A stretch of DNA of 64,000 bases from a virus: IMG/VR virus record IMGVR_UViG_3300021139_000005, positions 8,415 through 72,414 of that record. The stretch is one strand, 5' to 3'. Positions 1,473 to 44,237 of this stretch are shown piece by piece. Made by a program: the position numbers and the translations under genes. The notes below the pieces were generated by a model. The model was not told the DNA's origin, did not search any database, and worked only from the letters and a program-made list of their open reading frames with translations. Positions within the stretch are counted from its first letter, which is position 1, and the number at the start of each line of letters is the position of its first letter.

Positions 1473-3687
1473 CTACGAAGAATGGCAAGCTACAAGGAAG
1501 ATTAAATCCGGCATCGCGGACCTTGAGCCATATACCATCCAATTTCCAACTCCTCCGGCTCCGGAACTATTTATCAATTATGGACTCCCTGCAAAAGAAC
1601 AATTCTTTGTAAGAGAGGAAAAACCTGAGTGGTTAGACCGGCTCAATAGAATGAAGCGAAGTGAGGCCATGTCAGTGGTCAAAGCCAACCAGTATATGGC
1701 CGAGTGGATAGACAGCCAGTGGAGGAAGCGGAATGAGGGGGTATTCATGTATATCAAAGGCATCCCACTGTATATACCCGGTAAGTATTGGTTCTACATG
1801 AACTATTACTATCAGAACACAGCAAACGGGGTGGCGCTGGCGGACTTCCGGATGCCAGACTTAGAGTGGTTCTGGATATGGTGCCTGTTCGTATTACCCA
1901 ACCCAAACATCTACGGAATAATTGAGTGCACCCTTCGTCGGGATGGGAAATCAGCGCGTAGCTTCGGTGAAGACCTTGAGGAGATAAGCAAGGAGGCCAA
2001 CGTAAAGGCCGGCGCTCAGAGTAAGACCGACAAGGATGCCAAGGATACTTTTCAGGAGTTTATTGTTGAGCCTTGGCGAAGGCTACCCTTCTTCTTCAAC
2101 CCCATATTCGACAACAAAACATATCCGTCAAAGGAAATAAACTTCAGGTCACCATCGACATCAGGTGAGAGCCTGGATGCATCTATACTCGCGGAAGCGG
2201 TAATGGATGAGCTGGGCAGTTCAATTGAGGTAAGGGCCACCGTTGACAATGCATTTGACGGTAGAAAACTTCGTCGGTACACCTTGGACGAGGCAGGTAA
2301 GATTGAAGAAATGGATGTGTATGAGGCATGGCGTATCCACAAACAGTGCCTCAGAGTAGGTCAGAAGATGGTAGGTAAGGCCAAGATCACAACTACTGTT
2401 GAGGAGATGGTTAAGCTGGGCATGGAGCCATTCTGGAGGATATGGGACGAATCAGACCGCAAGCCGGAGAAGATGACCAAGCTGAATCAAACCGTCAGCG
2501 GACTTGTACCGATATTCAAGCCAGCGCATGAGGCATACATCTACGATCAATACGGGTTCCCAATAGCTGACGAACCAACACCAGAGCAGGCAGAGTATAG
2601 GAAATCTGTTCTTATTGCCGAGAATCGTTTGGAGGAGGTAAAGCAGGGACAGCACTTCCTCGGAGCCAAGGAGTTATTAAAGATGGAGGAGGAGTCTCTT
2701 TCGGGGAAAGCAAGGCAATCATTCCTCCGAATGTATCCACCATCTATATCAGTGGCCAGGAGGTCAAACAGCACAGAGTGTGCGTTCCCCGAGCATCAGG
2801 AAATAATTGAAAACAGGTTGGATGAACTTCGGTTTGGTCAGGACGATGTGTATGTCGGGAACCTTGAGTGGAAGGATAACATCCAGGATAGTGAGATAGT
2901 GTGGGTACCATGCAATCACAGGGATAGGCAGGGTAAGGTTTATGGGGATGAGTGCCCTCGGTGCCGGTTCAGATTCTTTACAATGGATCACCTGAGATAT
3001 GTCAACAACAACTCCAGGGACTCGATGGGGTATCTGATGCCAGGAAATAAGGGGAAGGGCATGGTATCAGCGGATACGTTCAAGTACGCTAACACTTCAG
3101 GGAACCGAAAGTCTCAGGCCGCATCTCATGGCTATTGGGAGTTCGATTTAGAGGTTGATCAGGGCAGGGACCACGTTGACCAGGTATCCGATGACTTCAT
3201 CTTTGAATACTTATTCAGGCCCAAAACACCGGCAGACTTCTGTGAGGACATGGTAAAGGTCTGTTTCTGGCTGGGCTGGGAGATGTTCCCCGAAATAAAC
3301 CTTGCTACTGTGTGGGACTACTTCCTTGCCCGGGGATATGAAAACTTCCTGAAGTTCAAGAAAATGTTCAAAATCGTTGACGGAAAGTATAAGATAGAGG
3401 AGAGCAAAACACCGGGGATGGTTACGCTCGGGGATCAATCAAAACTTCCGACGTTCGCAGCGGTAGAGACCTACCTGGACAAAAACGGATACAAATGCAA
3501 GGCTCGTAAATTCCTTCAGGACTGCAAGGACGTAGAGTTCTCAAAACTGACCAAATATGATGCCTTTGTGTCTGGCTCTCAGTGCCTTTATGCAAGGTCT
3601 CCGGTCCAAAGATTTAAGCCAAAAGTGGAGGTAAAGACGCGAACAGGACTCGACGGAGCATTTATGCTCAAGCAGGCAGGTACTTAA
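1447..3687 (+). CDS. terL: Terminase large subunit
   Basis: Walker A RRDGKS, Walker B YTLDEAGK, C-terminal acidic nuclease motifs (SADTF, YD); directly upstream of the portal gene. Confidence 0.92.
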   Translation: MPPKTKKFSYEEWQATRKIKSGIADLEPYTIQFPTPPAPELFINYGLPAKEQFFVREEKPEWLDRLNRMKRSEAMSVVKANQYMAEWIDSQWRKRNEGVFMYIKGIPLYIPGKYWFYMNYYYQNTANGVALADFRMPDLEWFWIWCLFVLPNPNIYGIIECTLRRDGKSARSFGEDLEEISKEANVKAGAQSKTDKDAKDTFQEFIVEPWRRLPFFFNPIFDNKTYPSKEINFRSPSTSGESLDASILAEAVMDELGSSIEVRATVDNAFDGRKLRRYTLDEAGKIEEMDVYEAWRIHKQCLRVGQKMVGKAKITTTVEEMVKLGMEPFWRIWDESDRKPEKMTKLNQTVSGLVPIFKPAHEAYIYDQYGFPIADEPTPEQAEYRKSVLIAENRLEEVKQGQHFLGAKELLKMEEESLSGKARQSFLRMYPPSISVARRSNSTECAFPEHQEIIENRLDELRFGQDDVYVGNLEWKDNIQDSEIVWVPCNHRDRQGKVYGDECPRCRFRFFTMDHLRYVNNNSRDSMGYLMPGNKGKGMVSADTFKYANTSGNRKSQAASHGYWEFDLEVDQGRDHVDQVSDDFIFEYLFRPKTPADFCEDMVKVCFWLGWEMFPEINLATVWDYFLARGYENFLKFKKMFKIVDGKYKIEESKTPGMVTLGDQSKLPTFAAVETYLDKNGYKCKARKFLQDCKDVEFSKLTKYDAFVSGSQCLYARSPVQRFKPKVEVKTRTGLDGAFMLKQAGT

Positions 3688-3694
3688 TTTTCGA

Positions 3695-3702
3695 TACTTT
3701 TG
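3695..3702 (+). promoter_or_regulatory. Bacteroidota-type -7 promoter element (TACTTTTG)
   Basis: Matches TAnnTTTG in the intergenic gap before the portal gene. Confidence 0.6.
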
Positions 3703-3717
3703 TCGTAAACAAGCAGC

Positions 3718-6075
3718 ATGCAGTTCACTCCTGAAACCCTACCAGATTGCCCACCAGAATTTGACGGATCATTTCCATCGCATTTGGTGGACCCGGGTAG
3801 AAAAGACAAGGCATGGCACCTGGCATATGTCCGTGGGATGTATTATCAGTGCAAGAATAACCTCGGATATTTCAGCAATGATCGAAAGTATGATTGGGTG
3901 GATGCAAGACTATATGCTGATGGTAATCAACCAGTTGAGAAGTATCACAAGTGGTCATCAAGGCTAACAGATGGAGCCGGAAATGTGGTAAGTTACATGG
4001 ACTTAAACTGGAAGATTGTATCCCCTCTTCCAAAGTTCTGCGCGGTATTAAAGGGTTACTTCTCGAAGCTCCAATACAAGATTCAGGCAACCTCGATCAA
4101 CCCGGAGGCATCAGATGACAAAAACAAAATCAAGGAAAGCATATGGGCCAGCAAAACCCTTAAACCATTCTTCGCTGAACTTGAACAGATTGCTCAACAG
4201 AGCTTTGGGGAAAATCCCATCCTTCCATTTGTACCGGACACCAAAGAAGAGCTTGAAATGTTCTTCAAAATGAGTTACCGTGACCAGGCTGAGATGGCTA
4301 TGGAAATGGGACTTCGTCAGGTATTTTACGAGAACGATTGGGATACCATGTCGGATGAGCTGTGGGATGACGTTATCCGTTTGGGAGCGCTGGGCACATG
4401 CACGTATGTTGACCGCATCAGCAAGAAGATAAAGATGCGCTACTGTGATCCGGTAAACATGATATTGGATACGTTCAGGGGTCATGATGGTGAGTCTATG
4501 GAGAGAATCGGTGAGTTCAGATTGATGACCATACAGCAATTGAAGCTGGCTGCGGGGGATCAGTTTACTGAGGCTGAATATTACGACATGGCCTATCGCC
4601 ATCGCGGACAGTATGGAAACCAGAACAACCTGGTGCCCTATGCTGACTATGTGAACACGGACTCGCTGTATACTTACAACCAGTGGGATAATTACCAGAT
4701 ACTTGTGCTTGAATTCTACACCGATAGCTGTGATAGAATAATGCGCGAAAGGAAGCCGGTAAAGGGGGTAAACTACTACTTCAAAAAACCTTTTGACACT
4801 CCTCTTGGAAAGAAGCAGGTGACCGACGAGTCCGGCAAGATGTTGTATGAGAAAGAGGTTTTCGCTACCGATACCAAGACCGTCTACGGAGGTGTTTGGA
4901 TTGTGGGGACCGACTATATCTACGATTGGGGAAAGACCACCGATATATCCAGGCCAAAGGATAACAGGAAGGAAGTAATGAAGCCAATGCGCTTCTACCG
5001 CTGTGAGAACCAATCAAGGATAGAACTTGCTATCCCTTTCGCGGACTCATACATGCTGTCATGGCTCAAGATTCAGAACCTGAAGGCTCGGGCAATTCCA
5101 AAGGGAATCATGATCGAGATTGGGGCATTCGAAAACGTTGCTCTGGATGGTAAGATTCAAAGCGCCAGGGAGTTGCTGGAGCTGGCCATTCAATCAGGTA
5201 TAATTGTCTACCGGAAGAATTCAACAATCGATGATGAAAACTACGACACTTCGCATCCAATAACGGAGACCAAGGGTGGTATGGGAGCCGAGTTCAAGGA
5301 GCTTATCGAGTCCATGGCAAATGACCTTATGAGCATTCGTGAGGTAATGGGGATATCTCAGATGTTTGATGCATCACAGCAGAATCCAAAACAACTTGTC
5401 GGTACCGCAGAGATGGCATACGAGGGAACAGAAAATGCCTTGGCACCATTAGTCAAGGGCTATCAGTGGATGCACAAAAAATGTGCTCTCGATGTGTGTT
5501 TGAAGTTCCAAATATTGGCCAGGTATATGGACCTAGAAGTGTATGAGCCAAGCATCGGAAGGGGACCGGTTCAGCGTTTGAAGATGGGCAAGGATATATC
5601 CTCTGTTACATACGGAATCGAACTTGAGGCACTGCCTACACAGGAGCAGAAACAGCGGATACTTGAGGCTGCAAAAGGAGCGCTTCAAAGCACGAACGAT
5701 CCTACTAAGGGAGGTATTGATTGGTCCGACTATCTCAAGATTGAGAAGTGGGTCATCAATGGGGATTGGAAGCTGGCCGATGCTTACTTCGTTTACCGGG
5801 TTAAACAGTCCAAACAGGAACTCGCTAAACAGGCTCAGGATAACATCAAGGCCCAGGGAGAGCAGAACCAGAAACTGCAACAGGAAAAACTGCAGGCAGA
5901 TGCTCAAAATATGCAGATGGAAATCAAGGGCAAAAAGGAGCTCAGCGACAACCAGGCACAGAACGATATGAAGGTCATTGGGTTCGAATATGACAAGAAG
6001 AAAGAGCTTCTTGGAATGGACCATGGGCATGACCTGGCGGTTGCCAGAGGGGAACGCGCAAATGCCAAAAAATAA
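3718..6075 (+). CDS. Portal protein
   Basis: 785 aa after TerL, crAss-like portal features (YMDLNWKIVSPLPKF), C-terminal Q/K coiled coil. Confidence 0.88.
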   Translation: MQFTPETLPDCPPEFDGSFPSHLVDPGRKDKAWHLAYVRGMYYQCKNNLGYFSNDRKYDWVDARLYADGNQPVEKYHKWSSRLTDGAGNVVSYMDLNWKIVSPLPKFCAVLKGYFSKLQYKIQATSINPEASDDKNKIKESIWASKTLKPFFAELEQIAQQSFGENPILPFVPDTKEELEMFFKMSYRDQAEMAMEMGLRQVFYENDWDTMSDELWDDVIRLGALGTCTYVDRISKKIKMRYCDPVNMILDTFRGHDGESMERIGEFRLMTIQQLKLAAGDQFTEAEYYDMAYRHRGQYGNQNNLVPYADYVNTDSLYTYNQWDNYQILVLEFYTDSCDRIMRERKPVKGVNYYFKKPFDTPLGKKQVTDESGKMLYEKEVFATDTKTVYGGVWIVGTDYIYDWGKTTDISRPKDNRKEVMKPMRFYRCENQSRIELAIPFADSYMLSWLKIQNLKARAIPKGIMIEIGAFENVALDGKIQSARELLELAIQSGIIVYRKNSTIDDENYDTSHPITETKGGMGAEFKELIESMANDLMSIREVMGISQMFDASQQNPKQLVGTAEMAYEGTENALAPLVKGYQWMHKKCALDVCLKFQILARYMDLEVYEPSIGRGPVQRLKMGKDISSVTYGIELEALPTQEQKQRILEAAKGALQSTNDPTKGGIDWSDYLKIEKWVINGDWKLADAYFVYRVKQSKQELAKQAQDNIKAQGEQNQKLQQEKLQADAQNMQMEIKGKKELSDNQAQNDMKVIGFEYDKKKELLGMDHGHDLAVARGERANAKK

Positions 6076-6109: not shown

Positions 6110-7327
6110 ATGACACCAACAGTAGGGTCAAAAGGAAAAGAAGCGGGTATTGTCGCTGCAGAAATGGGCATTGTCGTAAAATCGGGACCCGAAATGGGAA
6201 CTGGCGGCAATGGTCAGAATCAGGACAATAACTCAACAGCCAACGAAAAACCTGCCGGCAACGGACAAGGATCAACGGAGCAGAAGACGGTCGTTCAGCC
6301 CAAAGTGATAAACATTGGGAAGAAACCGGTGGAAACGCCGGCAAAAACAGTAGTTCCCGAGAAAGGAACCGAAACAGCACCCGCAGTAGTTGCGGACGAT
6401 TTTGATACCAGATTTGAGTCTCGTTTGAGCGAAATGTTCGGGCATGATTCGAAGAAGTTATCAGAAGTGTTGGGCCGGGTACCAGTTCTTGAAGAACAAC
6501 TAAACGCAGACCCTTACAAAAATCCTTTTACTAAACAGTTGGATGACTTGCTTGGAAAGGGAATACCGGTAGAAACAGCGGTTAAGTATTTGACCACTGA
6601 CTCAACCAAACTGTCGCACAAGGAGCTTATGGCTTTCAAAATGCAACAGGAATATCCGGAAATGGCAATCGAGAAGATCGTTCGCCAGATAGACCGGAAG
6701 TATAAATTGGGTGACTTCGCGCCCACCAAGAAAGTTGATGGCGAAGACGTACCTGACGAATCAGATGGACTTGAACAATTGGAATTCGATGCCCAGCCTA
6801 TCAAAAAAGAGTTCGACGCTCTGAAGGGCCAGATGTTGGAGACCGGTAAATCAAGGGCAGATGTAGTAAATCAGCAACGAGAAGTAGAAAGAGTAAAGTC
6901 ATGGGCACCGGTAGCTCAGAAGGTCGTAAATGATTTCGATGCAATCGAAGCAACAATGCCTAATGGCAACGTTCTGAAGTTCGCGGTTGAAATGACCCCT
7001 GAAGAAAAAACGGCCTATGAGGGACAGATTGCTCAGTTAATCAAGAGCACTCCTGGCCTGGGAACAGATGAGGCTGGCATTAAAACCGCAAGAGCCGTAG
7101 TTGAAACTCTTTACGTAGCAAAGAACTGGCAAAAGATGGCAATCGCATTTGCTGAACAAGGTCGGACGATGTCTGACGAGGAGTGGATTGCCGAAATACA
7201 TAACCCTAGCCTTGGGAATACGGCTGCTAAACCTTATACCGGTACCAAGCCAAAAGCTGACCGGGATGACCAGATAGTAGGCCATATCGAAAAAGTAGAA
7301 GGCAGGGCAAGAACGAGAACCAAGTAA
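6110..7327 (+). CDS. Putative capsid scaffolding/assembly protein
   Basis: Disordered N-terminus and acidic helical body, located between portal and MCP. Confidence 0.6.
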   Translation: MTPTVGSKGKEAGIVAAEMGIVVKSGPEMGTGGNGQNQDNNSTANEKPAGNGQGSTEQKTVVQPKVINIGKKPVETPAKTVVPEKGTETAPAVVADDFDTRFESRLSEMFGHDSKKLSEVLGRVPVLEEQLNADPYKNPFTKQLDDLLGKGIPVETAVKYLTTDSTKLSHKELMAFKMQQEYPEMAIEKIVRQIDRKYKLGDFAPTKKVDGEDVPDESDGLEQLEFDAQPIKKEFDALKGQMLETGKSRADVVNQQREVERVKSWAPVAQKVVNDFDAIEATMPNGNVLKFAVEMTPEEKTAYEGQIAQLIKSTPGLGTDEAGIKTARAVVETLYVAKNWQKMAIAFAEQGRTMSDEEWIAEIHNPSLGNTAAKPYTGTKPKADRDDQIVGHIEKVEGRARTRTK

Positions 7328-7349: not shown

Positions 7350-8711
7350 ATGATACCACAAACCAATGTGCCGTCCGCAGTTGTCGCGAATGCAACGGAC
7401 GCGTATATCTCCACATTCGACATACACATGCCGAGCAAGCGTAACAAACTGTTCAAACGCTTCGGTAAGCAGGGTGTAGGCTTCTTCAATACTCTCGAAA
7501 CCCTGGGATTTGTTGATGCCGTTAACCAAACCAACTGGAGCCATTATGAAGAAGACTACTGGCATGAAACATTTACCGTTCAGACATCAGTTGCCGATCC
7601 CGGTGCTGGTAACCCGGTAAATATTCGTCTTGCCGCTTCGAACGTAAACAGCTCTGGCTATTTCTACGTAAGACTTTATGATGACGTTTTATTCCCTAAC
7701 CAGGTAACCGGTAAGGTAGTTGCAATCGATACCACATCGTTCGCTACTCCACAGATAACTGTTCAACCTCACGTTGCAGCTTCTGATATTGGTGCGCTTG
7801 CTGCCGGTCAGGAACTTTCTATTTACTCTAACGGCTTCCAGGAAGATACTGATCAACCTGATGGACGTATCGCTGGGGTATCTGAGTTCTCTTTCGGTGC
7901 TAAGATCATCAAGGAAACCTTTACTGTATCAGGAACGGAAATGACGAACAAGGCATGGTTTGATACCGATAGCGATGGAAACTACATCGGCGCTTACTAC
8001 CTTGACGGACAGCTTCAGGCCGATTACCGTATTGCCCTTCAAATTGATGGTGCCTCTCTTTGGGACTCTCCTATCACTAATACTGTGTTGTCGAATGCCG
8101 GCCACAGGAACATGACAGGTCTGATTCCATGGATGACTACCAATAGCCCTACAGCAGTTTATACTGGCGGTCTGTTCTCAATGTCTAACGTTGATTACAT
8201 GATCAAGAGATTCACCAAGCTGTTCGCTACTGACACCTATATGTGGATGAACGGTATTGACCTGAGCATCGAAGTAGAAAACGTATTGACTGACTTCTTC
8301 GATCCGAACCCTAAGATTTTCGCGGGTTCTGTTGAGGGAAGTACTTCTCAGGAACTGAACATCGGTTTCTCGGGTATTAAAAAGTCTGACTTTACCTTCT
8401 ACCTGAAGAACATGGGTGTGTTCTCTAACCCTAAGACCTATAACATCGCTGGCTATAACGTAACCGGCCTGGGCTTAGTAACTCCGCTTGGTACCGCAAA
8501 AGACCCTAAAAAGGCTGTGAATATTCCTTTCATGGGAATGCGTTACAAAGAAATGGATGGATACTCTCGTAAGATGGAGGTTTGGCCTTTATCCGGTGCC
8601 GGTAACGGGCCGAAGAATATCAGCCGTGACCGTCACACCATCAACATGCGTTGTGAAATGGGAACAGAGTTCTTTGGATCAAACAACTTCTTCCTCTGGC
8701 AGAAGGCGTAA
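7350..8711 (+). CDS. Major capsid protein
   Basis: 453 aa, canonical position, high-expression codon bias, strong downstream terminator, crAss-type segments (KIIKETFTVSGTEM). Confidence 0.88.
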   Translation: MIPQTNVPSAVVANATDAYISTFDIHMPSKRNKLFKRFGKQGVGFFNTLETLGFVDAVNQTNWSHYEEDYWHETFTVQTSVADPGAGNPVNIRLAASNVNSSGYFYVRLYDDVLFPNQVTGKVVAIDTTSFATPQITVQPHVAASDIGALAAGQELSIYSNGFQEDTDQPDGRIAGVSEFSFGAKIIKETFTVSGTEMTNKAWFDTDSDGNYIGAYYLDGQLQADYRIALQIDGASLWDSPITNTVLSNAGHRNMTGLIPWMTTNSPTAVYTGGLFSMSNVDYMIKRFTKLFATDTYMWMNGIDLSIEVENVLTDFFDPNPKIFAGSVEGSTSQELNIGFSGIKKSDFTFYLKNMGVFSNPKTYNIAGYNVTGLGLVTPLGTAKDPKKAVNIPFMGMRYKEMDGYSRKMEVWPLSGAGNGPKNISRDRHTINMRCEMGTEFFGSNNFFLWQKA

Positions 8712-14510: not shown

Positions 14511-14518
14511 TACCTTTG
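14511..14518 (+). promoter_or_regulatory. -7 promoter element TACCTTTG, 4 nt before ATG
   Basis: TAnnTTTG consensus. Confidence 0.65.
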
Positions 14519-14522
14519 AACC

Positions 14523-15236: not shown

Positions 15237-15260
15237 TAAACTTAGCCTTATATTTGAGCC

Positions 15261-22040: not shown

Positions 22041-22053
22041 TTAACTTTGGGCC

Positions 22054-22398
22054 ATGTTCGAATGTTCACAGTGCGGCTTATGCTGCAGAAACACCGGAAA
22101 AGTAGTAGCTGACGCAAAGAAGGCACTATCCGAAGGAAGCAAATCAGTTCTAACCAGGATAACATCTGAGTTCCCATTTGGAGCAAAGGAAAATGGTTCC
22201 TGTGAAAAACTTGGAGAAGATGGCCGATGCACTGTTTATGAGAACCGGCCAGACATCTGTAATGTTGAGAAGAGCTTCGAAACTGTGGGCGCAGGAATGA
22301 CGAAGGAGCAGTATTACTCATTGCAGGGAACTTGTTGCAATGTGATGATAAAAGAGGCCGGAATGGACGAAAAGTATTTAGTCAAACAAAACTACTAA
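22054..22398 (+). CDS. YkgJ-family (CxxCxxCC) Fe-S/Zn cluster protein
   Basis: CSQCGLCC ... CEKL..DGRCTVYENRPDIC. Confidence 0.85.
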   Translation: MFECSQCGLCCRNTGKVVADAKKALSEGSKSVLTRITSEFPFGAKENGSCEKLGEDGRCTVYENRPDICNVEKSFETVGAGMTKEQYYSLQGTCCNVMIKEAGMDEKYLVKQNY

Positions 22399-23119: not shown

Positions 23120-25234
23120 ATGCCAGATCCAGGTTTAACATACGTCAGCGGTAATTACACAGCAGGGCCAGGTATCAGCGCTCCATCTAAAGTATTTGGA
23201 CCTGAGCAGGTAGCGGAGTTAACCAACAACCGGCTAGACCAGTATGTGCAGGACAAAAAGCAGGAACAGGCCAAGAACCAGGCCAAGCTCGGGAAGATGC
23301 TTTCTGACCTCGATGTAAAACCAACGGGCATGTTCGAAAAGGATTTGCCCGAGTTTGTTAAGGCCAAGCAAGCACTGGAAGACTTCTATACTCAAGCCCA
23401 GGTAGCCGGTGTTGATCCTAATAACCCAAGATTTTTGGAGCAGTATACCAAGGCTAAGAAGTATAAAGATGGTCTTCAGGCTATGGTACAGCAGAGCGTT
23501 AATAACAACAAGGAGTTTATAGAGGCAGTAAAAAAGCTGGATAGCAATAAGAATGATCAATTTGATTTTGACAGTAGCCAGAAGAATCTGGAAGCCTTTA
23601 AAAATGGAACGTTTGAGGAAAGGAATAAGTTAATAGGTAATCTATTAGTCCCAAACAACACAGATTATGAGCATAAATTCATGCTTGACCTGTATAAGAA
23701 TGGATTGTTAAAGCCAGACACAACAAAGGTGGCTCTTGATGCAAAGAACCCTGTAAAATATGATAAGGCAAGACTGAAGGAACTAGAAGCCCTTGACTCA
23801 TCAGGTAACTTAAAAGGGGATGAGCAGAATGAGTTAAAGGACCTTCGAATCAGCAGAGATGAGAATCAAAAACTTGTCGAAGGATATGATGTATCAGAGA
23901 CGAATGTGAAGTATGGGGACGATATTACCTTTAAAGCCAAAGATGCTAACGGAAACGTAGTTGACCAGATGAAGTTACCCTCTCAAACATTGGGGGCGGC
24001 AAGAGAAATGATGGCACCCGGAAATAAGGCAGGGGATAAGAGTAGGAGAGAGCTGATAAATTTAAGTAATGGGAAGGATGCCTCTGGTCAAATACCGCAA
24101 GTACAAGACCCAAACTATCCTAATGACCCCACAAAAACAATTGATGACCCCATTGCACAGGAAACCTACCGAAATCTGTATTACAACCTGCAAAAGATGG
24201 CGGCAGGGTATGGCATGTTTGGTGGACAACCTATAACCGGAGATGAGCTTTACGCGGCTCAAAAGATATCAGCTCACGCTAATGGTATCAAGAGGGCGTT
24301 TGAGGCAAAAGAAACACCCGCACAGGCAGCCAATGCGAGATACTGGAACTCTGGTGCCGGAAGGAAAGAGAAGGAGCAAACGTCATTTGCTGATGACATT
24401 GTTAACCAGGCATACTCTTGGCTTACAGGAGATCCTAAGCACGTTCATATGGACTCAGATGGCAGGAATGTAGCCGACCTTGTTGGCTATAATAGTTACC
24501 TTGGGGCAGAGTATAAAAAAGGATTTGGAAACCGAGTTGAAGACGCTCAATTCATTAAAAGACCTGATGGAACAACGGTCCTCCGGGTGAAATCATCTGC
24601 AAGCAAAGCAAAGGCAGCGCAGAATCCTACAATAACGGCACAGTACGAAGCAACAACGGCTCAGGTTGAGGCGATTGAAAACAATCCGAAGGTTTACGAC
24701 AAAAATAATCCTATAAATCCGTGGAAAGATATCAGCCAGAAGGCCGATTATGAGAAGTTACAGAACCACCTTACCGAACTAGAAAAGGCTGGCGGTAGCG
24801 GATATACAACTTATACCGTTGATCAACTTGGAACGCTGGCACAGGAACGAGTTATGGGTATCATGCATGGACATGGTGATCTCGCTACAGTACTTGGCGA
24901 GGTTAAAGATGCGGTGGACAGAAAGCTAAAATCTGTTGCTGGAAAGAACCCCAGTTACGGGGCAATAAAATCATCAGATAAGGCTGCATTACAGCAGCAA
25001 CTTGAGGACAACTTGGATAAGATGAATTATATGTCTGAAGGACCAGATAAGGCAGACTTTGTAGCAGAAAATACTCGCCTTCGGGAAAAAATCAAGGCTA
25101 TTGAGGATAAAGAGGTCGGCACCAAAACATCAACCAAAAAGACACCTCCTCCAAAGACGGGTGATGTTGTATCCGGACATAAGTTTAAAGGAGGAGACCC
25201 AAACAAACCAGAAAATTGGGAGGTTGTAAAATAA
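23120..25234 (+). CDS. Internal virion/ejection protein
   Basis: 704-aa K/D/Q-rich helical protein ending in GHKFKGGDPNKPENW, a tail reminiscent of podophage ejection proteins. Confidence 0.55.
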   Translation: MPDPGLTYVSGNYTAGPGISAPSKVFGPEQVAELTNNRLDQYVQDKKQEQAKNQAKLGKMLSDLDVKPTGMFEKDLPEFVKAKQALEDFYTQAQVAGVDPNNPRFLEQYTKAKKYKDGLQAMVQQSVNNNKEFIEAVKKLDSNKNDQFDFDSSQKNLEAFKNGTFEERNKLIGNLLVPNNTDYEHKFMLDLYKNGLLKPDTTKVALDAKNPVKYDKARLKELEALDSSGNLKGDEQNELKDLRISRDENQKLVEGYDVSETNVKYGDDITFKAKDANGNVVDQMKLPSQTLGAAREMMAPGNKAGDKSRRELINLSNGKDASGQIPQVQDPNYPNDPTKTIDDPIAQETYRNLYYNLQKMAAGYGMFGGQPITGDELYAAQKISAHANGIKRAFEAKETPAQAANARYWNSGAGRKEKEQTSFADDIVNQAYSWLTGDPKHVHMDSDGRNVADLVGYNSYLGAEYKKGFGNRVEDAQFIKRPDGTTVLRVKSSASKAKAAQNPTITAQYEATTAQVEAIENNPKVYDKNNPINPWKDISQKADYEKLQNHLTELEKAGGSGYTTYTVDQLGTLAQERVMGIMHGHGDLATVLGEVKDAVDRKLKSVAGKNPSYGAIKSSDKAALQQQLEDNLDKMNYMSEGPDKADFVAENTRLREKIKAIEDKEVGTKTSTKKTPPPKTGDVVSGHKFKGGDPNKPENWEVVK

Positions 25235-25257
25235 GTAAAAGTTTATACCTTTGAAGC

Positions 25258-25500
25258 ATGAGAATGCCCAGAAAAGTAAAAAAAAGACTACAAAAACGAG
25301 TTGCTAATGGGGCTACGTTTGATGAATTTATGTTTGAATTCATGCACAAAAAAAGAAATATTTTGTTTAAGAGGTTTGGTAAACAATCACCCATGTCTGC
25401 TGGAAAATTTATAGTTGCTAATTATATGTCTCCCGATCTAACTAAAATAGAGGGTAATGCATTTGATGATGTATTATTACCTTTGAACAATGGCCGATGA
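25258..25500 (+). CDS. Small inserted protein containing a copy of the MCP N-terminal motif
   Basis: KRNILFKRFGKQ versus MCP KRNKLFKRFGKQ; own TACCTTTG 4 nt before ATG. Confidence 0.7.
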   Translation: MRMPRKVKKRLQKRVANGATFDEFMFEFMHKKRNILFKRFGKQSPMSAGKFIVANYMSPDLTKIEGNAFDDVLLPLNNGR

Positions 25501-28171
25501 CAAAAAACCATGGGAAGTAGAGTATGACAAGGGTAGCTCAGATAGCAAACAAGCTACCACAGAGGCAAAGCCTTGGGAAATAGATTATGACAAACCGGCT
25601 TCCAAGAAAGAAGATGCACCCGTAAACTCTAATGAAGAGGCCCAAAAGAAACTACAAGATGGTGGTAAATTACCTGGACTACAGGATAACAAAACACCTG
25701 GGAAAGAGTCTAATGAGGCGGTTCCTGTTCACCCACAGAACGAACGCCTTCCTGATCCAATAAAGAAAAAGGTAGGCGATAAAAGCGTTGAAACCTACGT
25801 CGCTGAAAAGAATCATGAGCAGTTCAAGAAGCAGGGAGAGATGTCGGATATTGCCGGCAAGCTGAATCAGTTTCAATATTCTGATAACTGGAAACAGTTT
25901 TTAGCCCTCAGCGAATCATTCGCAAGCCCCAACTTGAAGAAAGGGACTCCAGAGTACGATGCGGCAGTTAAGAAGCATGATGAACTTATGGATAAGCCGT
26001 TCGACTATAACTCCGTTCAGTATGAGTGGGGGTCTAATCCTACACCGGCATCCACCTCTGAAAAAAACTACGTTAAGCCAGCGACAGAAACTACCTTCAA
26101 TAACAAGGTTCCAAAAGAATTTGCCAGTGTAAAAACAGTTGGTGATGCTGTAAAAGTTTGGAATAAACTGAGTGCTGATGGGAAGAAGCTACAGGAAGAG
26201 CATAAGCAGGTAACTGCTGATAAGGATGAAACAGTCAAGGCCGCGAGAGATATTGCCGGCATCAAGATAAACCAAGCCGGAGAGCATCAGATAAACCAGT
26301 ACGAGTCCTTCGTTGATGGGCTTGTTGGTTCGTTCAGTTCAATAAAGAAAACGACTGACCTGCTTACTTCATCTCCAGAGGAACGTGCACAGATAGGTTT
26401 GCAGGGCGAAGGAGAGCAGCTTATTGATCCAAAGGTCCCTACAGGATTTGGGGCAGGAGCTTTTCAGGCGGCAGGTAGCCTTATCCCGTTGGCCATGCCT
26501 GGGATTGGGGCAGAGGCTGCGTTTGGCAAGGGAATGTTAGCTGCCGGTGGTGCAATGTTCGGACAGGGCCTTATCATGCATATGACAGGATATGCACCTG
26601 CATGGCAGGAGATGTTCAGCAAAACATTTAACGAAACGGGGGATAAGATGTTGGCTGTAGACAAAGCCGACAAGACTGCAGCAGTACATGGAACGGTGGA
26701 CTTCATAGTAGGTGCTGCCATGCTTCCAATAGCTACTAAATTAGGAGGAATAGCAGGCAGGGCTATACTTGGGGAAGAGGCTGCGAATTACCTCACCAAA
26801 ACAGGAGAACTTAACGCAAGCAGGATGCCGTTAGGCCGGTGGGTAGAATACCAGTTGGCTCATCACAGTATTGCATCGAGTCCGTTTTACGCGGGTAAGG
26901 TAGTTACAAATGCCTTTGATATTGCCAGCGGGGAAAAGAAGGGATACCTGGATGGAGCCGCCGATCAATACATGGGTGCTATGTTGTTGGGGTTCGGAAT
27001 GGATGGATTCATGTATGGCAAAGGGAAGGTAAGGGATATGTGGGGTAAAACCCTATCAAAATATGCTCCGGATGCTGCTGTTCAGTTCATCAACAAAATG
27101 ATTGGCGAAGGCAAGATGGGCCAGAAGGAAGGCACTGACATGGTAGGAACCATAGAAAATCAGGCCCGGGCATACAAGATGATGCCAGATGGAATTACCA
27201 TCGACCACGAAGGCGAGATTCTTCCTATCCTGATGGAGAATGATCAGCTAATGCGCCAAAAGAATGAAGGAGACCTTTATCCTGACGTTGTTACCATGGA
27301 TAAAATCCGGAAGAACAACCAGAAGATATTGGAGATTACTCAGTCTCCACTATCGTACGAAGAGTTAAAGGATAGGGCTAAATTGAAGGAACAGGAGAAG
27401 GCAAATGGTGGAAGACTTCCACAGCATGACCGGGATATGTTATCGCACTACGACCGCAGGCTGGATGCTATTGAGGCTACCAAGGCTGAAATGGCTAACC
27501 GGAAACAGAAGGCTATCGATGACATGATTGATAAGCTGTCTACCGGTGATAAGGTAGAGGCTACTCCAGAAGAACAGAAATTCTATGAGGAGAATAAAAC
27601 AGCAATCGATAAAGGTCTGGAAGATAAACAGACCGCTATTGACACGGAGAAAAAGGCATCCATTCAGAACAAGATAAATGCTGGGGAAGAAATTACCGGC
27701 GATGAGCTTGCTGACAAGAAGAAGTTCGAAGAGGAAGGATACGAGTTCAGGCCCAAACCTGCTGCTCCACCGGCACCTGTTCCCGCACCTGAAGAGGTTC
27801 AACAGCACATAGCCAACAACTATAAAGCTGATTTGAATGCCATCGACGCAAAGATGGAGTCAGGAGAACTTACCCATGAGCAAGGGGAGGCAGAGATTCA
27901 AAAGTTGAAGGATAAGGCAGTAAAAGACCTGGCCGATAAGAAGGCTGCGGAGAATAAAGCTACGCGGGAATCGCTTGAACCAGACATGAATGCCTTCAGC
28001 GAATACGAAGCACTTCAAAAGAAAAAGGGTATCAAAAAGACCAACGGCATGGCCGACTTCCTTGAAAAGATGGGAAGGAAGGGTGCAGCTATAAAGGCTA
28101 TCTCAGACAATTGGAGTGAGCTCAGCAAAGAACTTGAGAAATCAGGCATCTTGGAAGTTGACTGCCCATAG
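25490..28171 (+). CDS. Internal virion/ejection protein with hydrophobic membrane-like segments
   Basis: N-terminal KPWEVEY/KPWEIDY repeat, central G/A-rich hydrophobic helices, C-terminal DCP. Confidence 0.55.
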   Translation: MADDKKPWEVEYDKGSSDSKQATTEAKPWEIDYDKPASKKEDAPVNSNEEAQKKLQDGGKLPGLQDNKTPGKESNEAVPVHPQNERLPDPIKKKVGDKSVETYVAEKNHEQFKKQGEMSDIAGKLNQFQYSDNWKQFLALSESFASPNLKKGTPEYDAAVKKHDELMDKPFDYNSVQYEWGSNPTPASTSEKNYVKPATETTFNNKVPKEFASVKTVGDAVKVWNKLSADGKKLQEEHKQVTADKDETVKAARDIAGIKINQAGEHQINQYESFVDGLVGSFSSIKKTTDLLTSSPEERAQIGLQGEGEQLIDPKVPTGFGAGAFQAAGSLIPLAMPGIGAEAAFGKGMLAAGGAMFGQGLIMHMTGYAPAWQEMFSKTFNETGDKMLAVDKADKTAAVHGTVDFIVGAAMLPIATKLGGIAGRAILGEEAANYLTKTGELNASRMPLGRWVEYQLAHHSIASSPFYAGKVVTNAFDIASGEKKGYLDGAADQYMGAMLLGFGMDGFMYGKGKVRDMWGKTLSKYAPDAAVQFINKMIGEGKMGQKEGTDMVGTIENQARAYKMMPDGITIDHEGEILPILMENDQLMRQKNEGDLYPDVVTMDKIRKNNQKILEITQSPLSYEELKDRAKLKEQEKANGGRLPQHDRDMLSHYDRRLDAIEATKAEMANRKQKAIDDMIDKLSTGDKVEATPEEQKFYEENKTAIDKGLEDKQTAIDTEKKASIQNKINAGEEITGDELADKKKFEEEGYEFRPKPAAPPAPVPAPEEVQQHIANNYKADLNAIDAKMESGELTHEQGEAEIQKLKDKAVKDLADKKAAENKATRESLEPDMNAFSEYEALQKKKGIKKTNGMADFLEKMGRKGAAIKAISDNWSELSKELEKSGILEVDCP

Positions 28172-28185
28172 TATATATTTGCTAC

Positions 28186-28809
28186 ATGGTAGCAGTAGAA
28201 TTCATCATCGACGTAATCCTGGACGCACCATTTGAATCGATATATCCTGAAGAGATGAGAATCCCTTCCGAGATCAAGCATCAGATGCTGCATAAGACCC
28301 AGGCAACCTTCATCACAATGATCAACAAGGAAACCAGGGAGCCAATTGGCGAGACGTATTACCTCCCGTTGGACTTGCTTGAACAACACATGACCGAGTT
28401 ACAGGCCGGGGCATGGATGGGAAAACAAGCAGCATACATCTACAAGAACACAATTCTTCCTGAATATCAGGGTAAAGGGTATGGAAAGATGCTCACCGAT
28501 TTCAGGCTCTCTCATCTCAAAAAACAAGGGTATAAATACTCCATCGGTCACGCGAGACACAACAGGTCAATTAAGCAGGCGCGTATGTTCGGAGCCACGG
28601 TCATTTCAGAGATTGATAACTGGTCAGGCGGTAGCGAAACGGTATCTCTTTGTGTGCTTGATTTAACCAAGTTCAGTGATCATGAGATTGACCGGGCAGC
28701 AGTAAAGGCCGGTATCGAATCAGGATACAAATACACAGAAAAGATAGCTTATCAGGACGGTTACCGGGCAGGTATTATCTTTGCTCAACAAAATGGCTAT
28801 AACTCCTGA
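28186..28809 (+). CDS. GNAT-family N-acetyltransferase
   Basis: Acetyl-CoA motif ILPEYQGKGYGKML. Confidence 0.85.
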   Translation: MVAVEFIIDVILDAPFESIYPEEMRIPSEIKHQMLHKTQATFITMINKETREPIGETYYLPLDLLEQHMTELQAGAWMGKQAAYIYKNTILPEYQGKGYGKMLTDFRLSHLKKQGYKYSIGHARHNRSIKQARMFGATVISEIDNWSGGSETVSLCVLDLTKFSDHEIDRAAVKAGIESGYKYTEKIAYQDGYRAGIIFAQQNGYNS

Positions 28810-30215: not shown

Positions 30216-33200
30216 ATGGCAAAATCACCTTCACCGTGTATCCACATTGACCTACGTACCGGAAAAGTTTATTCCGAACAGCAGTTTAAGGCAATGCTGG
30301 CAAACGATCTTCCTGAATTACTTGAAAAACTACCAGAGTTTAAGCCGAAGTATGAGGCTGTAGCAGCAAAGGTAGATGAGCTGGGCGGGACCAGTGTAAT
30401 CATAGCGCCATTTTACGATAAGCGAGCGGCCACCAGAGAAGAGGCCGATATGCTTAACAACTCCCCTGCGGTTCAGCAGCATCTTCAGAACATGCGTGAC
30501 TTGGCGAAGGCCATGGGGATCGGGGTCAAGAGTATTAAATCTAACCTGGGAAAGTTTGTAAACAAGGAGAAAAAAGAGGTTTACGAATTAAGCCATACGG
30601 TTCAGTTGGATACAAAGGATTTAGACAAGGCAACGACATTTGCTGCACTTATGGGCGTAATGGGGCCAGAGGTTCAGCAGTCTACTATTGCGGGAAGGGT
30701 GCTTTCAGAAAATGAAATCGGCTCAGACTCCCATACGGCAAATAGATTCGATGTTAACTTTTCTTCTGAAAAAGATTTTGATAGGGCAGTGGAACTCGCA
30801 ATTGCTTCAGGATTAGAGTATTCTGCCAATATTGAGAACCGAACGATATCTTTTTTGGATTTTTCTAATGGGAAAGATACCAAATGGTTGTCAAACTTTA
30901 ATACCTTTGATTCTCAAATCGTAGACAATGGAATCGACGGAGAATACGCAGTCACCCCAATTGAATCAAGACTCATCGAAGCAACCCCAAAGCCAATCTA
31001 TGAAGGAGGCCCGCTCTCGAGTGGAAGAGATGCCATTCTTCAAGAGGGGCAAAGGCAAGTGGAACTTCAAGGGGGCGGGGGATTGCTTCGTCATGCCTTG
31101 GACGAGGCAGTCACAAGAAACAACGACTTCCTCAAACAACAAGAGCTAGAACCGGTCCGCAAGGAATACGCCGATCTACGACAAAAAGAAATCGATTTAG
31201 GGGAGAAGGGAGAGCGCTTAACTGATGAAGAGGTTAAGAAGAAGGATGAGCTGTACAAAAAACTCTTGCCTGAAGTAAAGACCACAGTAGCCAAGGCCGC
31301 AGATGCATACAGTGAGGCTAAGGAGGAGATACAGAGCGTAGGGAAGAAGGTTGTAGGGAAGAAAGGCTTTGTCGTTCCGTTCAACATAAAAAGGGCTGAG
31401 AGGGCAGCGGTTAAGATACTTCGCTGGTATCAGGGTAAGGCACAGTGGCTCGGGGATGGTGCCAGGACAACAATAGTGGTACACGATGCCGCTGACATCC
31501 ATGATGTTGTTGAAGACCTGAAAAAACAATACGGTGGCGGGATTGAACGCGATGAGACTACCGGTGAAACAGACCTTGGATATCCAAAACAATTACTTGA
31601 GGTAAGGACTAAAAACGGTCGCATAGCTGAGTTCCAGGTAATGACTCCAGAGGGTTACTTAGCTAAAGATGGCATAACCAATTTCCAACCAGAGAAACAA
31701 GGTTACGCTAAACAGGTTCTGAATGCTATTCGTGATCGACTTGGCTTTGATATTCCGGATGGTGCCGGCCATTATTTGTATGAAATCAGCAGAGACTTTA
31801 ACGTTCCAGGTGAACTACGCGAGGAGGCAAACCGGTTAAGCAGGCAGTATTACGATGCCATGACTAACGAGAACAGCACACTCGATGGTAAGCAGTTTGA
31901 GAAGGACATGAAAGCATTCGTTGATAAGGTTGACGGTGCCGATAAATCTGGATGGGATGAGGGTAATAAGGGAGTTGCTCCTGAGCCGGTAAGAGAGTTT
32001 ATCGGTGCAGAGGAAGCGGACAAAAACCTTCCTACATACACAGCAAAAAATGTTGGTTCGATAGATACTAAGGATAGGGAAGGCGCACAGAAAAAGGTTC
32101 TGGAAGATGCAAAGAGGGTGATTAAGGCGGTCTCTGGCATCGTTAAGAAGGGTACAGGACTTGATCTGAAGGTCGTTGTTCATGATGATCCGGAATCGTT
32201 CGCTAGGGCAGTAAGGAGAGCAGGGGGAAAGAGTCAGAACGCAGGTGCCCGGGGATTCTATATGGGGCCAGATGGAGCGATACATCTCAACATGGACAAG
32301 GTTACTACCGACACAATGCTCCATGAAGGATTTCACCCTCTCCTTGATTATATAGCAGCACAGAAGCCGGAAGAGCTCGACAATCTTTATAAGCAACTCA
32401 AAAGCGTTCCGGGCGCAGAGGACATTGTGGACCAGGCCGATATAGACTACACCGGAGATGTCACTCGTAAGAAGGAGGCCATCACTGATTTCATCGCCAA
32501 GGTAGCTAACGGAGATATCAAAATCGAGCCAACTACTATCGATAAAATCAAGGACTTCATCAATAAAGCGCTTAACGTTGTAGGCTTAGGAAAGGCTCCT
32601 GTTGACATGGGACTGGACATGAGTAATGCTGAAGACTTGAAGGCATTGGCAAAGGGGATAAGCCAAAGTTTCGCAACCGGAAAGGAAATAAAGCCATCGG
32701 ACATAGTTCCAGATTGGTTGCAAGGGAAGGGAACAGAGGGGAACGCTGACCAACCTATACAGCTACAGGCTGACTTCACTCACAAAGAAAGTGGATTAGA
32801 ATGGCAGTACTTTAAAAACTCAAATAAGTTCAAAGACTTGGTTGATCGGGGATATGTAACCTTTGATAAAACCATCCACGACTTTAAAGGGGCGGTAGTA
32901 TTCCACATGCCCGATGCGGGGTTTTCGGGTAGAATATTAAAGGATGGGGTATTGGTTTCTGAGGGAAAGGGGGGCGTATACTATCCATTAGTTTTCCATG
33001 ACAATGGAGACTTTTGGGCAGCTACATCACGCGGGGCAGCGTCATTGGCAAAGAGGTTAAATCAGGCTAGGGCCGCATCGCCGGACGGAAAAATAAGGAT
33101 GGTATTGGTCTCTTCACCAATAGACAAACTGATGTCTTCCTCGCTAAATGGAATAGGACTTGTAGATATGCTAACATCAAAAGCATTTAGCGATAAGTCT

Positions 33201-44128: not shown

Positions 44129-44147
44129 TTGATTATATTTGTCTTAT

Positions 44148-44237
44148 GATGTCCGCTAGCATCAGAAAGATATTTAACTTTTAAATTCCCTTATCGAAAG
44201 GTGTCTAGCGGCATCCGGAGGTAGGGGAATTTCTTTT
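44148..44237 (+). ncRNA. Candidate pseudoknotted leader RNA upstream of the HNH gene
   Basis: Two interleaved stems downstream of TATATTTG (44134-44141). Confidence 0.45.

Follow-up and report, generated by a model that had tools for sequence, protein, structure and literature searches.

The window, a stretch of 64,000 nt, belongs to the 72.4 kb genome of a freshwater phage of Bacteroidota. It contains, as the initial annotation stated, an 80-codon open reading frame at 25258..25500 on the plus strand (hereafter ORF80), which lies in the plus-strand virion block and is flanked by large proteins of no known family. The features of the locus and of the capsid genes to which it is compared are the following.

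6110..7327, plus strand: scaffold-like protein of 405 aa between portal and major capsid protein (gene order terminase, portal, scaffold-like, capsid)
7350..8711, plus strand: major capsid protein (MCP), HK97 fold, SU10-like/crAss-like family (phrog_13704, E 2e-24)
7428..7472, plus strand: codons of MPSKRNKLFKRFGKQ (MCP residues 27–41), within the predicted N-arm helix 28–42
23120..25234, plus strand: upstream neighbour, 704 aa, no known family; residues 34–200 are 38% identical to the relative G001
25235..25489, plus strand: AT-rich stretch of 255 bp between the 704-aa and 893-aa genes, an insertion relative to G001
25246..25253, plus strand: −7 box TACCTTTG of the Bacteroidota sigma-A type, 4 nt before the ORF80 ATG
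25258..25500, plus strand: ORF80, 80 aa, 9.4 kDa, pI 10.6
25315..25323, plus strand: TFD, ORF80 residues 20–22, matching MCP residues 22–24
25342..25386, plus strand: codons of MHKKRNILFKRFGKQ (ORF80 residues 29–43), putative copy of the MCP N-arm helix
25478..25485, plus strand: second −7 box TACCTTTG, within the last ORF80 codons; the 893-aa gene begins 4 nt further on, with its ATG at 25490
25490..28171, plus strand: downstream gene, 893 aa, without a known family; its first 11 nt lie within the end of ORF80

ORF80 as a gene and its site

Several properties indicate that ORF80 is probably a genuine gene. The probability that 80 codons stay open at its composition (32.5% GC) is about 8e-4, the codon-position signal follows the frame (GC1>GC2>GC3), and purines occupy codon position 1 at a frequency of 0.654 in frame versus 0.494 and 0.543 out of frame. 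Were ORF80 not a gene, the structural block (876 to 38000) would have its largest gap here, 255 nt versus at most 108 nt elsewhere. To these is added the spacing of the promoter described below. Gene callers of public sources also predicted ORF80 (P0001 and P0081). The protein has a split charge, with a basic N-terminal half (pI 11.7) and an acidic C-terminal half (pI 4.7), and its single-sequence AlphaFold2 model contains helices at residues 5–16 and 21–40 with a mean pLDDT of 57.

The initial annotation gave ORF80 its own promoter, a claim borne out as a sequence signal by a TAnnTTTG box with the same geometry as at six other gene starts. TAnnTTTG-N4-ATG occurs at eight sites in the genome, seven of them accepted gene starts (ORF80 and the six others), while at other spacings from an ATG (0–3 and 5–12) the box was found at 0–4 sites each, with one gene start in total. 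In Flavobacterium, the −7 box spans −12 to −5, according to a passage in PMC9723704. Since the box ends 4 nt before the ATG, transcription is predicted to begin at the A of the ATG, and the host sigma-A RNA polymerase would probably transcribe ORF80 as a leaderless mRNA.

The GC content of ORF80 is 0.325 versus 0.445 for the window, in agreement with the AT-richness first reported for it. The site was compared in one relative, G001, the nearest one compared, whose MCP is 70% identical to that of the ORF80 phage. No small ORF lies between the flanking genes of G001; instead, they overlap by 4 nt, the last nucleotides of the 701-aa homologue (5391..3286) covering the ATG (3289) with which the next large ORF begins. 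The 893-aa neighbour had no relative in IMG/VR or in G001–G005, and no family was matched by the 704-aa, 893-aa and 2544-aa proteins.

Morons are extra genes with their own promoter and terminator located between conserved genes of tailed phages. ORF80, which had been described as sitting like a moron between cargo genes, resembles them in its own promoter, its deviant base composition and its absence at the same site in G001, so that the part of the description concerning an inserted extra gene stands. Unlike morons, ORF80 had no detectable terminator (no terminator-like site in 24900–25800), and its end overlaps the promoter and start of the next gene. It is therefore not a full textbook moron, and the role of its neighbours as cargo is unproven, as they match no family. 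Contigs from four runs covering 24400–26400 were at least 99% identical in every piece. One of them (run X6) spans ORF80 and is identical to it, and all four variant sites fall in the flanking genes. The lineage is nearly clonal. We propose, with low confidence, that ORF80 would be expressed as a late small gene specific to this one phage lineage.

ORF80 is an orphan gene. A tblastn search against 50,697 phage records gave no match at E 1 or better, and a word-based search of 5.8 billion proteins retrieved only ORF80 itself; the second member of its protein cluster is the same protein with an earlier start. HMMER searches of 1.84 billion representatives retrieved ORF80 and P0080 (E 6.9e-4, 28% identity), a repetitive protein of 784 aa that was taken as a spurious match. 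No families were found in Pfam, PHROGs, NCBIfam or PADLOC, the latter being a library of defence proteins, not of anti-defence proteins. In the ESM Atlas, all matches were below 0.9, the level of shuffled proteins, and the single Rfam match was far under the gathering score (20 versus 47 bits, E 0.32).

The capsid protein and its match in ORF80

The MCP retrieved nothing as a single sequence from IMG/VR or among PDB sequences, and matches were obtained with its alignment. PF17236 was present in 20 of the 78 MCP homologues. The AlphaFold2 model (mean pLDDT 80.1) aligned in Foldseek with 9in6_M (E 4.7e-20) and 7qof_B (E 7.1e-19). Across 41 family members, Q41 is invariant, and L34 and G39 are conserved in at least 90%. 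The closer relatives are P0003 (78% identical, KRTELFKRFGKQC), P0004 (75%, KRTQLFKRFGTQG) and P0005–P0008 (about 70%), of which P0003, P0004 and P0005 are known as proteins only. In this closest group (P0003–P0008) the N-arm motif reads LFKRFGKQ, versus LFRRYGDQG in the more distant members.

Directly upstream of the MCP gene, a homologue of the scaffold-like protein was encoded in 39 of 39 related loci. In its alignment (A2), which comprises 23 of these loci, N365 is invariant and P366 is conserved in at least 90% of the sequences. By its gene position, the protein encoded at 6110..7327 is a candidate scaffold.

The initial annotation had reported that 11 of 12 residues are identical between ORF80 and the N-terminal region of the MCP, and this was recovered exactly (KRNILFKRFGKQ, ORF80 residues 32–43, versus KRNKLFKRFGKQ, MCP residues 30–41, nt 7437–7472). 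The match extends to 12 identities in 15 residues between MHKKRNILFKRFGKQ and MPSKRNKLFKRFGKQ (BLASTP 28.1 bits, E 2e-5 for the single pair). It begins at a similar distance from the N-terminus, at residue 29 in ORF80 and residue 27 in the MCP, and AlphaFold2 predicts the motif as helical in both proteins. Six N-arm positions are conserved in the family (S21, D24, P28, L34, G39 and Q41), and ORF80 keeps the D, L, G and Q among them; P28 is lost, as is G42, another residue conserved in the MCP family.

The similarity is one of protein and not of DNA, as had been claimed. Over the 45 nt compared, 27 are identical and third positions agree in 3 of 15. Different codons are used for 10 of the 12 identical residues, so that the helix is not a recent copy. 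ORF80 thus shares the N-arm helix motif with the SU10-like/crAss-like HK97-fold MCPs (PF17236; 9in6, 7qof) and, unlike them, has none of the fold in its 80 aa. It lacks the significant match over the P and A domains expected of a PF17236 paralogue, the full-length MCP-family profile (76 relatives) giving 3.6 bits (E 1.1) in an alignment of 15 residues.

Further patches of resemblance were set aside. TFD does precede the motif in both proteins, as first noted, and belongs to the ISTFDI block conserved among the MCPs. Including it brings no net gain in score, since a 4-residue gap is needed (BLOSUM62 arithmetic; BLAST did not extend the alignment); likewise, the gaps required to include TFD and VAN cancel the gain. 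A second collinear patch, FDDVLLP (ORF80 69–75) versus YDDVLFP (MCP 110–116), was rejected as evidence, the chain of both hits being at least as frequent by chance as the single hit (p 9e-5 versus 3.5e-5). This resemblance is partly promoter sequence, because the second TACCTTTG dictates the ORF80 C-terminus ...LLPLNNGR.

The match relative to chance

With a Gumbel fit to 3000 shuffles, the pairwise p-value of the match was 3.5e-5, which scales to about 0.24 for the 85-ORF proteome; overall, the proteome-wide chance of such a match is in the range of about 0.04–0.24. Two of 15 shuffled proteomes equalled the bit score by reaching 30.1 bits, whereas none of the 15 contained 12 or more identities in a span of up to 15 residues. 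When terminase, portal and MCP were the sole targets, ORF80 gave the top match, and it was reached in none of 25 shuffles (maximum 29.2 bits).

A further comparison used an N-arm profile of the MCP family built without the MCP of the ORF80 phage itself. In a search of 1082 six-frame ORFs, this profile matched ORF80 with 13.0 bits and an E-value of 0.0034, and neither 5000 residue shuffles nor 5000 AT-rich Markov sequences contained a single sequence reaching 10 bits. Only the MCP and ORF80 matched in the window, the next score being 7.4 bits (E 0.18). No non-MCP match above 7.8 bits was found in five related whole genomes, so that none of the five had a comparable match, and a second copy of the N-arm was absent from 50 related loci (about 10 kb on each side of the capsid gene, contig permitting) and from G001.

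Other small ORFs carrying fragments of capsid, portal or terminase proteins were near the shuffle level, and ORF80 alone stood out. Patches at or above 20, 22, 24 and 26 bits numbered 28, 9, 4 and 3 versus shuffle means of 25.6, 8.3, 2.3 and 0.6 (25 shuffles). The NIFKRFNKLG patch of the 367-aa protein, which aligns with the same MCP helix, was at chance level (22.1 bits, E 0.15; −0.8 bits with the family profile).

It is somewhat unlikely that ORF80 is a real orphan gene whose 15-residue likeness to the MCP has neither common origin nor function. Such a coincidence would be consistent with the proteome-wide expectation of about 0.24, the shuffled proteomes that equal the bit score, the E-value of the full-length profile and the failure of TFD and FDDVLLP to add score. 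The motif is also rich in residues (K, N, I, F and L) readily encoded by AT-rich DNA, yet the AT-rich null did not reproduce it. Back-translated LFKRFGKQ was matched 14 times in IMG/VR, 13 of them outside capsid genes (12 frames of 10–22 aa and one of 114 aa) and one in a capsid gene. However, the motif coincides with the part of the MCP N-terminal region that is best conserved across the family, and an offset as close as residue 29 versus 27 is expected for about 1 in 90 position pairs (estimate, 330/28974). Twelve identities in 15 residues were absent from the shuffled proteomes, and the match to the hallmark targets from their shuffles. The similar N-terminal distance and the lack of a comparable match in the five related genomes favour a real relationship. 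Considering all of these comparisons, the repeat shared by ORF80 and the MCP appears to be real, borderline beyond chance.

Possible roles of the ORF80 helix

As the best explanation, we tentatively suggest that ORF80, a small, basic and presumably late protein, may dock on the capsid assembly machinery through its N-arm-like helix. ORF80 residues from about 20 to 43 would derive from a copy of the N-arm helix in the MCP of the same phage that has since diverged. Docking is suggested because, in other HK97-fold phages, the N-arm helix is the place where the C-terminal helix of the scaffolding protein docks; in 80alpha, a passage in PMC5644958 describes the C-terminal helix of the scaffold in contact with the N-arm helix alpha1 of the capsid protein. 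The ORF80 helix would accordingly bind the partner of the MCP, either the scaffold-like protein (6110–7327) or the inner wall of the procapsid. Once docked, ORF80 might either be carried into the procapsid, as the internal proteins of T4 are, or tune assembly. The initial annotation had offered a modulator of capsid assembly as its second possibility, which comes nearer to this suggestion and is just as hypothetical.

Two known systems bear a likeness to this arrangement. CpmB of SaPI1 is a small protein with a copy of a short docking helix between scaffold and capsid, which competes with that of the 80alpha scaffolding protein for the capsid N-arm (PMC5644958). CpmB reproduces the scaffold side and comes from a satellite that redirects capsid size; ORF80, the product of a phage gene, would reproduce the capsid side, and its binding is proposed. 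In T4, passages in PMC3012670 describe a capsid-targeting sequence, a short peptide found on diverse small packaged proteins, and the internal proteins IPI–III, which are small, diverse and fast-evolving and share a short N-terminal peptide leading into the scaffolding core. The T4 peptide is common to several internal proteins, whereas the motif described here occurs only in the MCP and ORF80. The T4 targeting peptide is also removed by the prohead protease; in the ORF80 phage, no protease-named PHROGs family was found among the 26 proteins scanned, many of which lacked any family.

Several observations count against docking. Unlike the T4 targeting sequence, the motif is carried by no other protein of the virion block. 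ORF80 has no homologues, and the contig from another sample that covers it is identical. ORF80 is also dispensable for assembly, as it is absent from the closest relative compared. A complex prediction with the MCP, residues 290–405 of the scaffold-like protein and ORF80 gave 0.00 versus a mark of 0.32, a run without controls that speaks neither for nor against binding.

Viewed more broadly, a free-standing and separately expressed N-arm helix of the phage's own MCP on a small basic protein could act as a mimic, either an address label that loads a strain-specific effector into the head by replacing the MCP on the scaffold or a decoy for a host protein that reads the nascent MCP; we consider this doubtful. 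Should the copied helix have a function, ORF80 would show that a phage is able to use its own capsid docking helix a second time, as a portable tag or mimic. This would be a simple route to load new small proteins into heads or to disturb readers of the capsid N-arm, and comparing other phage genomes with themselves could reveal further copies. The value of the finding is mainly as a lead, given that a single orphan gene of a nearly clonal lineage is concerned and that its match of 15 residues is borderline.

It is distinctly unlikely that ORF80 is the remnant of a 5′ fragment copied from a capsid gene, that of this phage or of an AT-richer relative, which recombined at a shared promoter core and still has an open frame with an idle motif. 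A 5′ gene fragment would give an equal N-terminal offset, a copy of the TTAT(T)ACCTTTGAA promoter core lies on each side of the insertion, and the stretch is absent in G001. If the donor were the capsid gene of another phage, the synonymous differences would reflect divergence between capsid genes and not selection on ORF80. Nevertheless, LFKRFGKQ is the version found in the phage's own closest group (P0003–P0008), and the KP before the core and the QG-GFF after it, which are nearly invariant in capsid proteins, are lost in ORF80. An unselected frame of 80 codons would also rarely stay open at 32.5% GC.

In place of docking, a free N-arm peptide could, as the initial annotation proposed, bind a capsid-recognising host sensor and titrate or block it, which we regard as improbable. 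It is typical of host-conflict genes to be small, AT-rich and strain-specific and to have a promoter of their own, and host sensors of capsid peptides exist, such as Lit with the T4 Gol peptide and CapRel SJ46. What such sensors read is a short stretch of a structural protein or its fold. Competition by a phage protein for a sensor of this kind has been published for DSAD1 versus DSR2 (PMC11087589). DSAD1 does not copy the sequence of the tail tube protein. A faithful mimic of an activating peptide would be expected to trigger the sensor, not to silence it. The type and position of the promoter match virion-block genes and not obviously early genes, and ORF80 lacks homologues. No phage capsid mimic or decoy was described among the literature matches listed, and the crAss001 paper had no passage on the N-arm, scaffold or proteolysis.

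Finally, it is very improbable that the 255 bp are a promoter-bearing spacer with an incidental ORF: although the stretch is AT-rich, as many regulatory spacers are, and holds two promoters, and ORF80 has a poor AlphaFold2 model and no homologue in either protein collection, 80 open codons are themselves improbable, the purine and GC position signals follow the ORF80 frame, the first promoter is spaced exactly for an mRNA starting at its ATG, and public gene callers predicted it.

As a by-product, the seven genes with a sigma-A −7 box exactly 4 nt before the ATG predict leaderless mRNAs in a Bacteroidota phage, an observation that may be more solid than that of the capsid helix.

Virion genes, capsid fold and host

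The virus record is 72,414 bp long with direct terminal repeats, and the window corresponds to its bases 8415-72414. The virion genes form one block:

Virion block of the phage
1447-3687, + strand, large terminase (phrog_6681, E 1.2e-51)
3718-6075, + strand, portal (phrog_6547, E 8.2e-63)
6110-7327, + strand, 405-aa scaffold-like protein (position between portal and MCP)
7350-8711, + strand, major capsid protein, MCP (phrog_13704, E 2e-24)
3' of MCP, + strand, fibre-like and other virion proteins, then large proteins without a known family

The MCP is an HK97-fold protein. Its AlphaFold2 model, built with 41 relatives, has a mean pLDDT of 80.1, and the closest solved chains are those of Vibrio phage VP1 (9in6_M, E 4.7e-20) and crAss001 (7qof_B, E 7.1e-19). 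Of the 78 homologues found in databases, 20 carry PF17236 (SU10_MCP). Among 77 records of cultured phages whose MCP is related (21-25.5% identity), the hosts are Flavobacterium (68), Cellulophaga (7) and Maribacter (1), and the host of this phage is therefore very likely, judging from sequence relationships, a member of Bacteroidota. Eight MCP relatives (P0012, P0014 and P0016-P0021) were called with 30-45 additional N-terminal residues, among them a hydrophobic segment like a signal peptide; the start may have been miscalled, or the extension may be real.

G001 (72,393 bp), the nearest relative whose DNA was compared, has a collinear virion block, with identities of 70% for MCP, 63% for terminase and 59% for portal. 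Its region 60279-72086 (C1, - strand) is one ORF of 3935 aa, the largest ORF of the phage studied here having 2544 aa (30216-37850). Against the 3935-aa ORF, tblastn with ORFs of at least 100 aa from the phage studied here gave no match at E 1e-5. Three fibre-like paralogues (11522-13048, 13050-14504 and 40339-41340) have common NxAIG-type repeats (54.9 and 53.1 bits ungapped), the third being AT-rich (GC 0.368).

Likeness of ORF80 to the capsid N-arm

The MCP model begins with a disordered stretch (residues 1-20), followed by a helix at 28-42 (pLDDT in the 50s-60s), a second at 45-52 and the first strands; the region of the two helices is modelled as the N-arm of the HK97 fold. The stretch resembling it lies in a small ORF:

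25258-25500, + strand, ORF80, 80 aa

Residues 29-43 of ORF80 (MHKKRNILFKRFGKQ) and 27-41 of MCP (MPSKRNKLFKRFGKQ) have 12 identical residues out of 15 (28.1 bits; E 2e-5 for the pair), and TFD occurs a few residues N-terminal of the motif in both. The motif falls on the conserved N-arm block of the MCP family. Of its positions, Q41 is invariant, and conservation at L34 and G39 is 90% or more; ORF80 retains these three, but not P28 and G42. Codons differ at 10 of the 12 identical residues, ending in A/T in ORF80 and in G/C in MCP, and the GC content of ORF80 is 0.325 versus 0.445 for the window. In DNA, the two stretches agree at 27 of 45 bases and at 3 of the 15 third positions. The initial annotation had described the protein match, TFD, codon differences, AT-richness and an upstream TACCTTTG, all of them correctly. 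Modelled alone, ORF80 gave a weak model (mean pLDDT 57), with helices at 5-16 and 21-40 (pLDDT ~70) and a disordered C-terminal half.

The outcome of a chance test depends on its framing, and every framing is reported here. When the N-terminal 53 columns of an alignment of 76 MCP relatives, this phage's MCP excluded, were used as a profile, 1082 six-frame ORFs yielded ORF80 as the sole non-MCP match (E 0.0034 at 13.0 bits; next 7.4 bits). At least 10 bits was reached by none of 5000 residue shuffles of ORF80 and none of 5000 AT-rich Markov sequences. When targets were limited to terminase, portal and MCP, the ORF80-MCP pair was the best match (30.1 bits ungapped), a score attained in 0 of 25 shuffles (maximum 29.2). 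Pairs with 12 identities within a span of at most 15 residues were absent from all 15 shuffled proteomes. Across five whole related genomes, the best non-MCP match to the profile scored 5.7-7.8 bits, and the best self-match of each genome's own MCP N-terminus 18-22.7 bits.

Other framings count against the likeness. In an all-against-all comparison of 85 ORFs, 30.1 bits was attained in 2 of 15 shuffled proteomes, and a Gumbel fit gave a pairwise p of 3.5e-5 that rises to ~0.24 when scaled to all pairs. The full-length MCP family profile scored only 3.6 bits on ORF80 (E 1.1), 13 IMG/VR matches to back-translated LFKRFGKQ lie outside MCP genes, and neither TFD nor a second ORF80-MCP patch added score. 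Besides these statistics, the motif starts at a near-equal offset in the two proteins (residue 29 in ORF80, 27 in MCP), a closeness that we estimate for ~1 in 90 random placements. Taken together, the similarity is probably not accidental, although this falls short of proof, and a chance resemblance appears somewhat unlikely.

Apart from ORF80, other ORFs showed no excess of capsid, portal or terminase patches over shuffles. Residues 245-265 (QMSDNVKNIFKRFNKLGTPFY) of a 367-aa protein (47993-49096, - strand) match the MCP helix at 8 of 21 positions (22.1 bits, E 0.15). As a further copy of the helix this protein was rejected, its match being at chance level (pairwise E 0.15; family profile -0.8 bits).

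Possible role in capsid assembly

Our best guess, a tentative one, is that ORF80 docks on the capsid assembly machinery. It would be a small late protein whose N-arm-like helix takes the docking site of the MCP N-arm, either on the scaffold-like protein or on the inside wall of the procapsid. After docking, the protein would either be taken into the head or modulate assembly. Its N-terminal half is basic (pI 11.7) and its C-terminal half acidic (pI 4.7). In phage 80alpha, helix alpha1 of the capsid N-arm is described as a contact of the C-terminal helix of the scaffold, and CpmB, a satellite protein, as competing with that scaffold via a similar helix (PMC5644958); scaffold-capsid contacts are also described for P22, phi29 and SPP1. 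The closest working analogy is provided by the T4 internal proteins, reported to be small, diverse and fast-evolving, with only a short capsid-targeting sequence common to all that directs them to the scaffolding core (PMC3012670). If functional, ORF80 would be a new variation on the known mimicry of assembly docking helices.

A homologue of the 405-aa gene lies immediately 5' of MCP in all 39 related loci examined, and this gene position suggests a scaffold-like protein. In an alignment of 24 of these loci, N365 is invariant and conservation of P366 reaches at least 90%; both lie some 40 residues before the end of the protein. In this phage the pair is part of HNPS (residues 364-367). Within the family (6110-7327; the gene upstream of MCP in L003-L051), the Asn and Pro stand ahead of a variable C-terminal tail ending in a short amphipathic stretch, and may be a processing or docking site.

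Docking has three weak points: the motif is common to MCP and ORF80 only, no protease-named family was found among 26 proteins scanned with PHROGs, and ORF80 cannot be essential, since it is absent from the close relative G001.

It is unlikely that the stretch is a fossil of a 5' capsid-gene fragment. The initial annotation proposed an immune decoy against a host capsid sensor, which we regard as quite improbable. One conceptual difficulty is that a peptide closely copying the activating one would be expected to set the sensor off, not to silence it. None of the open-access papers listed describes a phage capsid decoy or a free-standing copy of the N-arm. On present evidence ORF80 is a curious single case.

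Coding status, promoters and lineage

ORF80 probably represents a genuine orphan gene, with a predicted leaderless promoter, as indicated by its open frame, codon-position signal, promoter geometry, the small gaps between genes of its block and the presence of other AT-rich genes; that it is not a gene is highly unlikely. With the base composition of ORF80, stops should occur about every 12 codons, and a run of 80 open codons has a chance of ~8e-4. GC falls from codon position 1 to 3 (0.395, 0.333, 0.247), and purines occupy position 1 at 0.654 in frame, against 0.494 and 0.543 in the other frames and a mean of 0.658 in the long genes of this phage. As far as 38 kb, genes of the structural block are separated by no more than 108 nt, so that 255 nt without a gene would exceed every other gap. 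Low GC is no argument against coding, since the genome carries other AT-rich genes, such as 44239-44781 (GC 0.333) and 52249-52551 (GC 0.307). A capsid-protein paralogue is ruled out, as ORF80 lacks the fold and fails the full-length profile.

TACCTTTG lies 4 nt upstream of the ORF80 ATG. The Flavobacterium sigma-A -7 box, TAnnTTTG, is reported to span -12 to -5 (PMC9723704); with N4 spacing, the transcript is thus predicted to begin at the A of the ATG. Seven of the eight TAnnTTTG-N4-ATG sites in the genome are starts of accepted ORFs, which would be transcribed as leaderless mRNAs by the host sigma-A polymerase; as a caveat, ORF80 itself is counted among the seven. All remaining spacings within 0-12 nt have 0-4 sites each and one gene start altogether.

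TAnnTTTG-N4-ATG sites and the accepted ORFs starting at them
14511-14525, gene start 14523
15249-15263, gene start 15261
22042-22056, gene start 22054
25246-25260, gene start 25258 (ORF80)
25478-25492, gene start 25490 (893-aa gene)
28174-28188, gene start 28186
60674-60688, gene start 60686
44134-44148, no gene start

The second TACCTTTG (25478-25485) precedes the ATG of the 893-aa gene by 4 nt and lies within the last codons of ORF80, whose C-terminal LLPLNNGR it dictates. The moron-like character proposed earlier was borne out in three of four features, the exception being the terminator: no terminator-like site was found near ORF80.

No homologue other than ORF80 itself was found in phage records or among 5.8 billion proteins. 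HMMER against 1.84 billion representatives returned as sole other match a repetitive 784-aa protein (E 6.9e-4), regarded as a spurious match, and no family was matched in Pfam, PHROGs, NCBIfam or PADLOC. At the G001 junction, the homologue of the upstream gene (701 aa) runs 4 nt into the start of the large ORF that follows, and neither a small ORF nor a -7 box is present there; the 255 bp including both promoters are thus specific to this lineage. Over window 24400-26400, contigs from four freshwater, lake-water or plain metagenome runs (records dated 2016, 2020, 2020 and 2022) show 99% identity or more to this phage, the differences amounting to 4 single bases in 2 kb, and the lineage looks nearly clonal over years. 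The one contig that covers ORF80 is identical in sequence and so offers no variation to gauge selection.

G001 has three TAnnTTTG-N4-ATG sites, only one at a gene start, where the counterpart of this phage's 114-aa gene (22054) begins. The N-terminus of the 893-aa protein (window 25490-25600) carries a short motif twice, KPWEVEYDK and KPWEIDYDK, and the G001 protein at this site begins with PSLEELE and PSLDELD.
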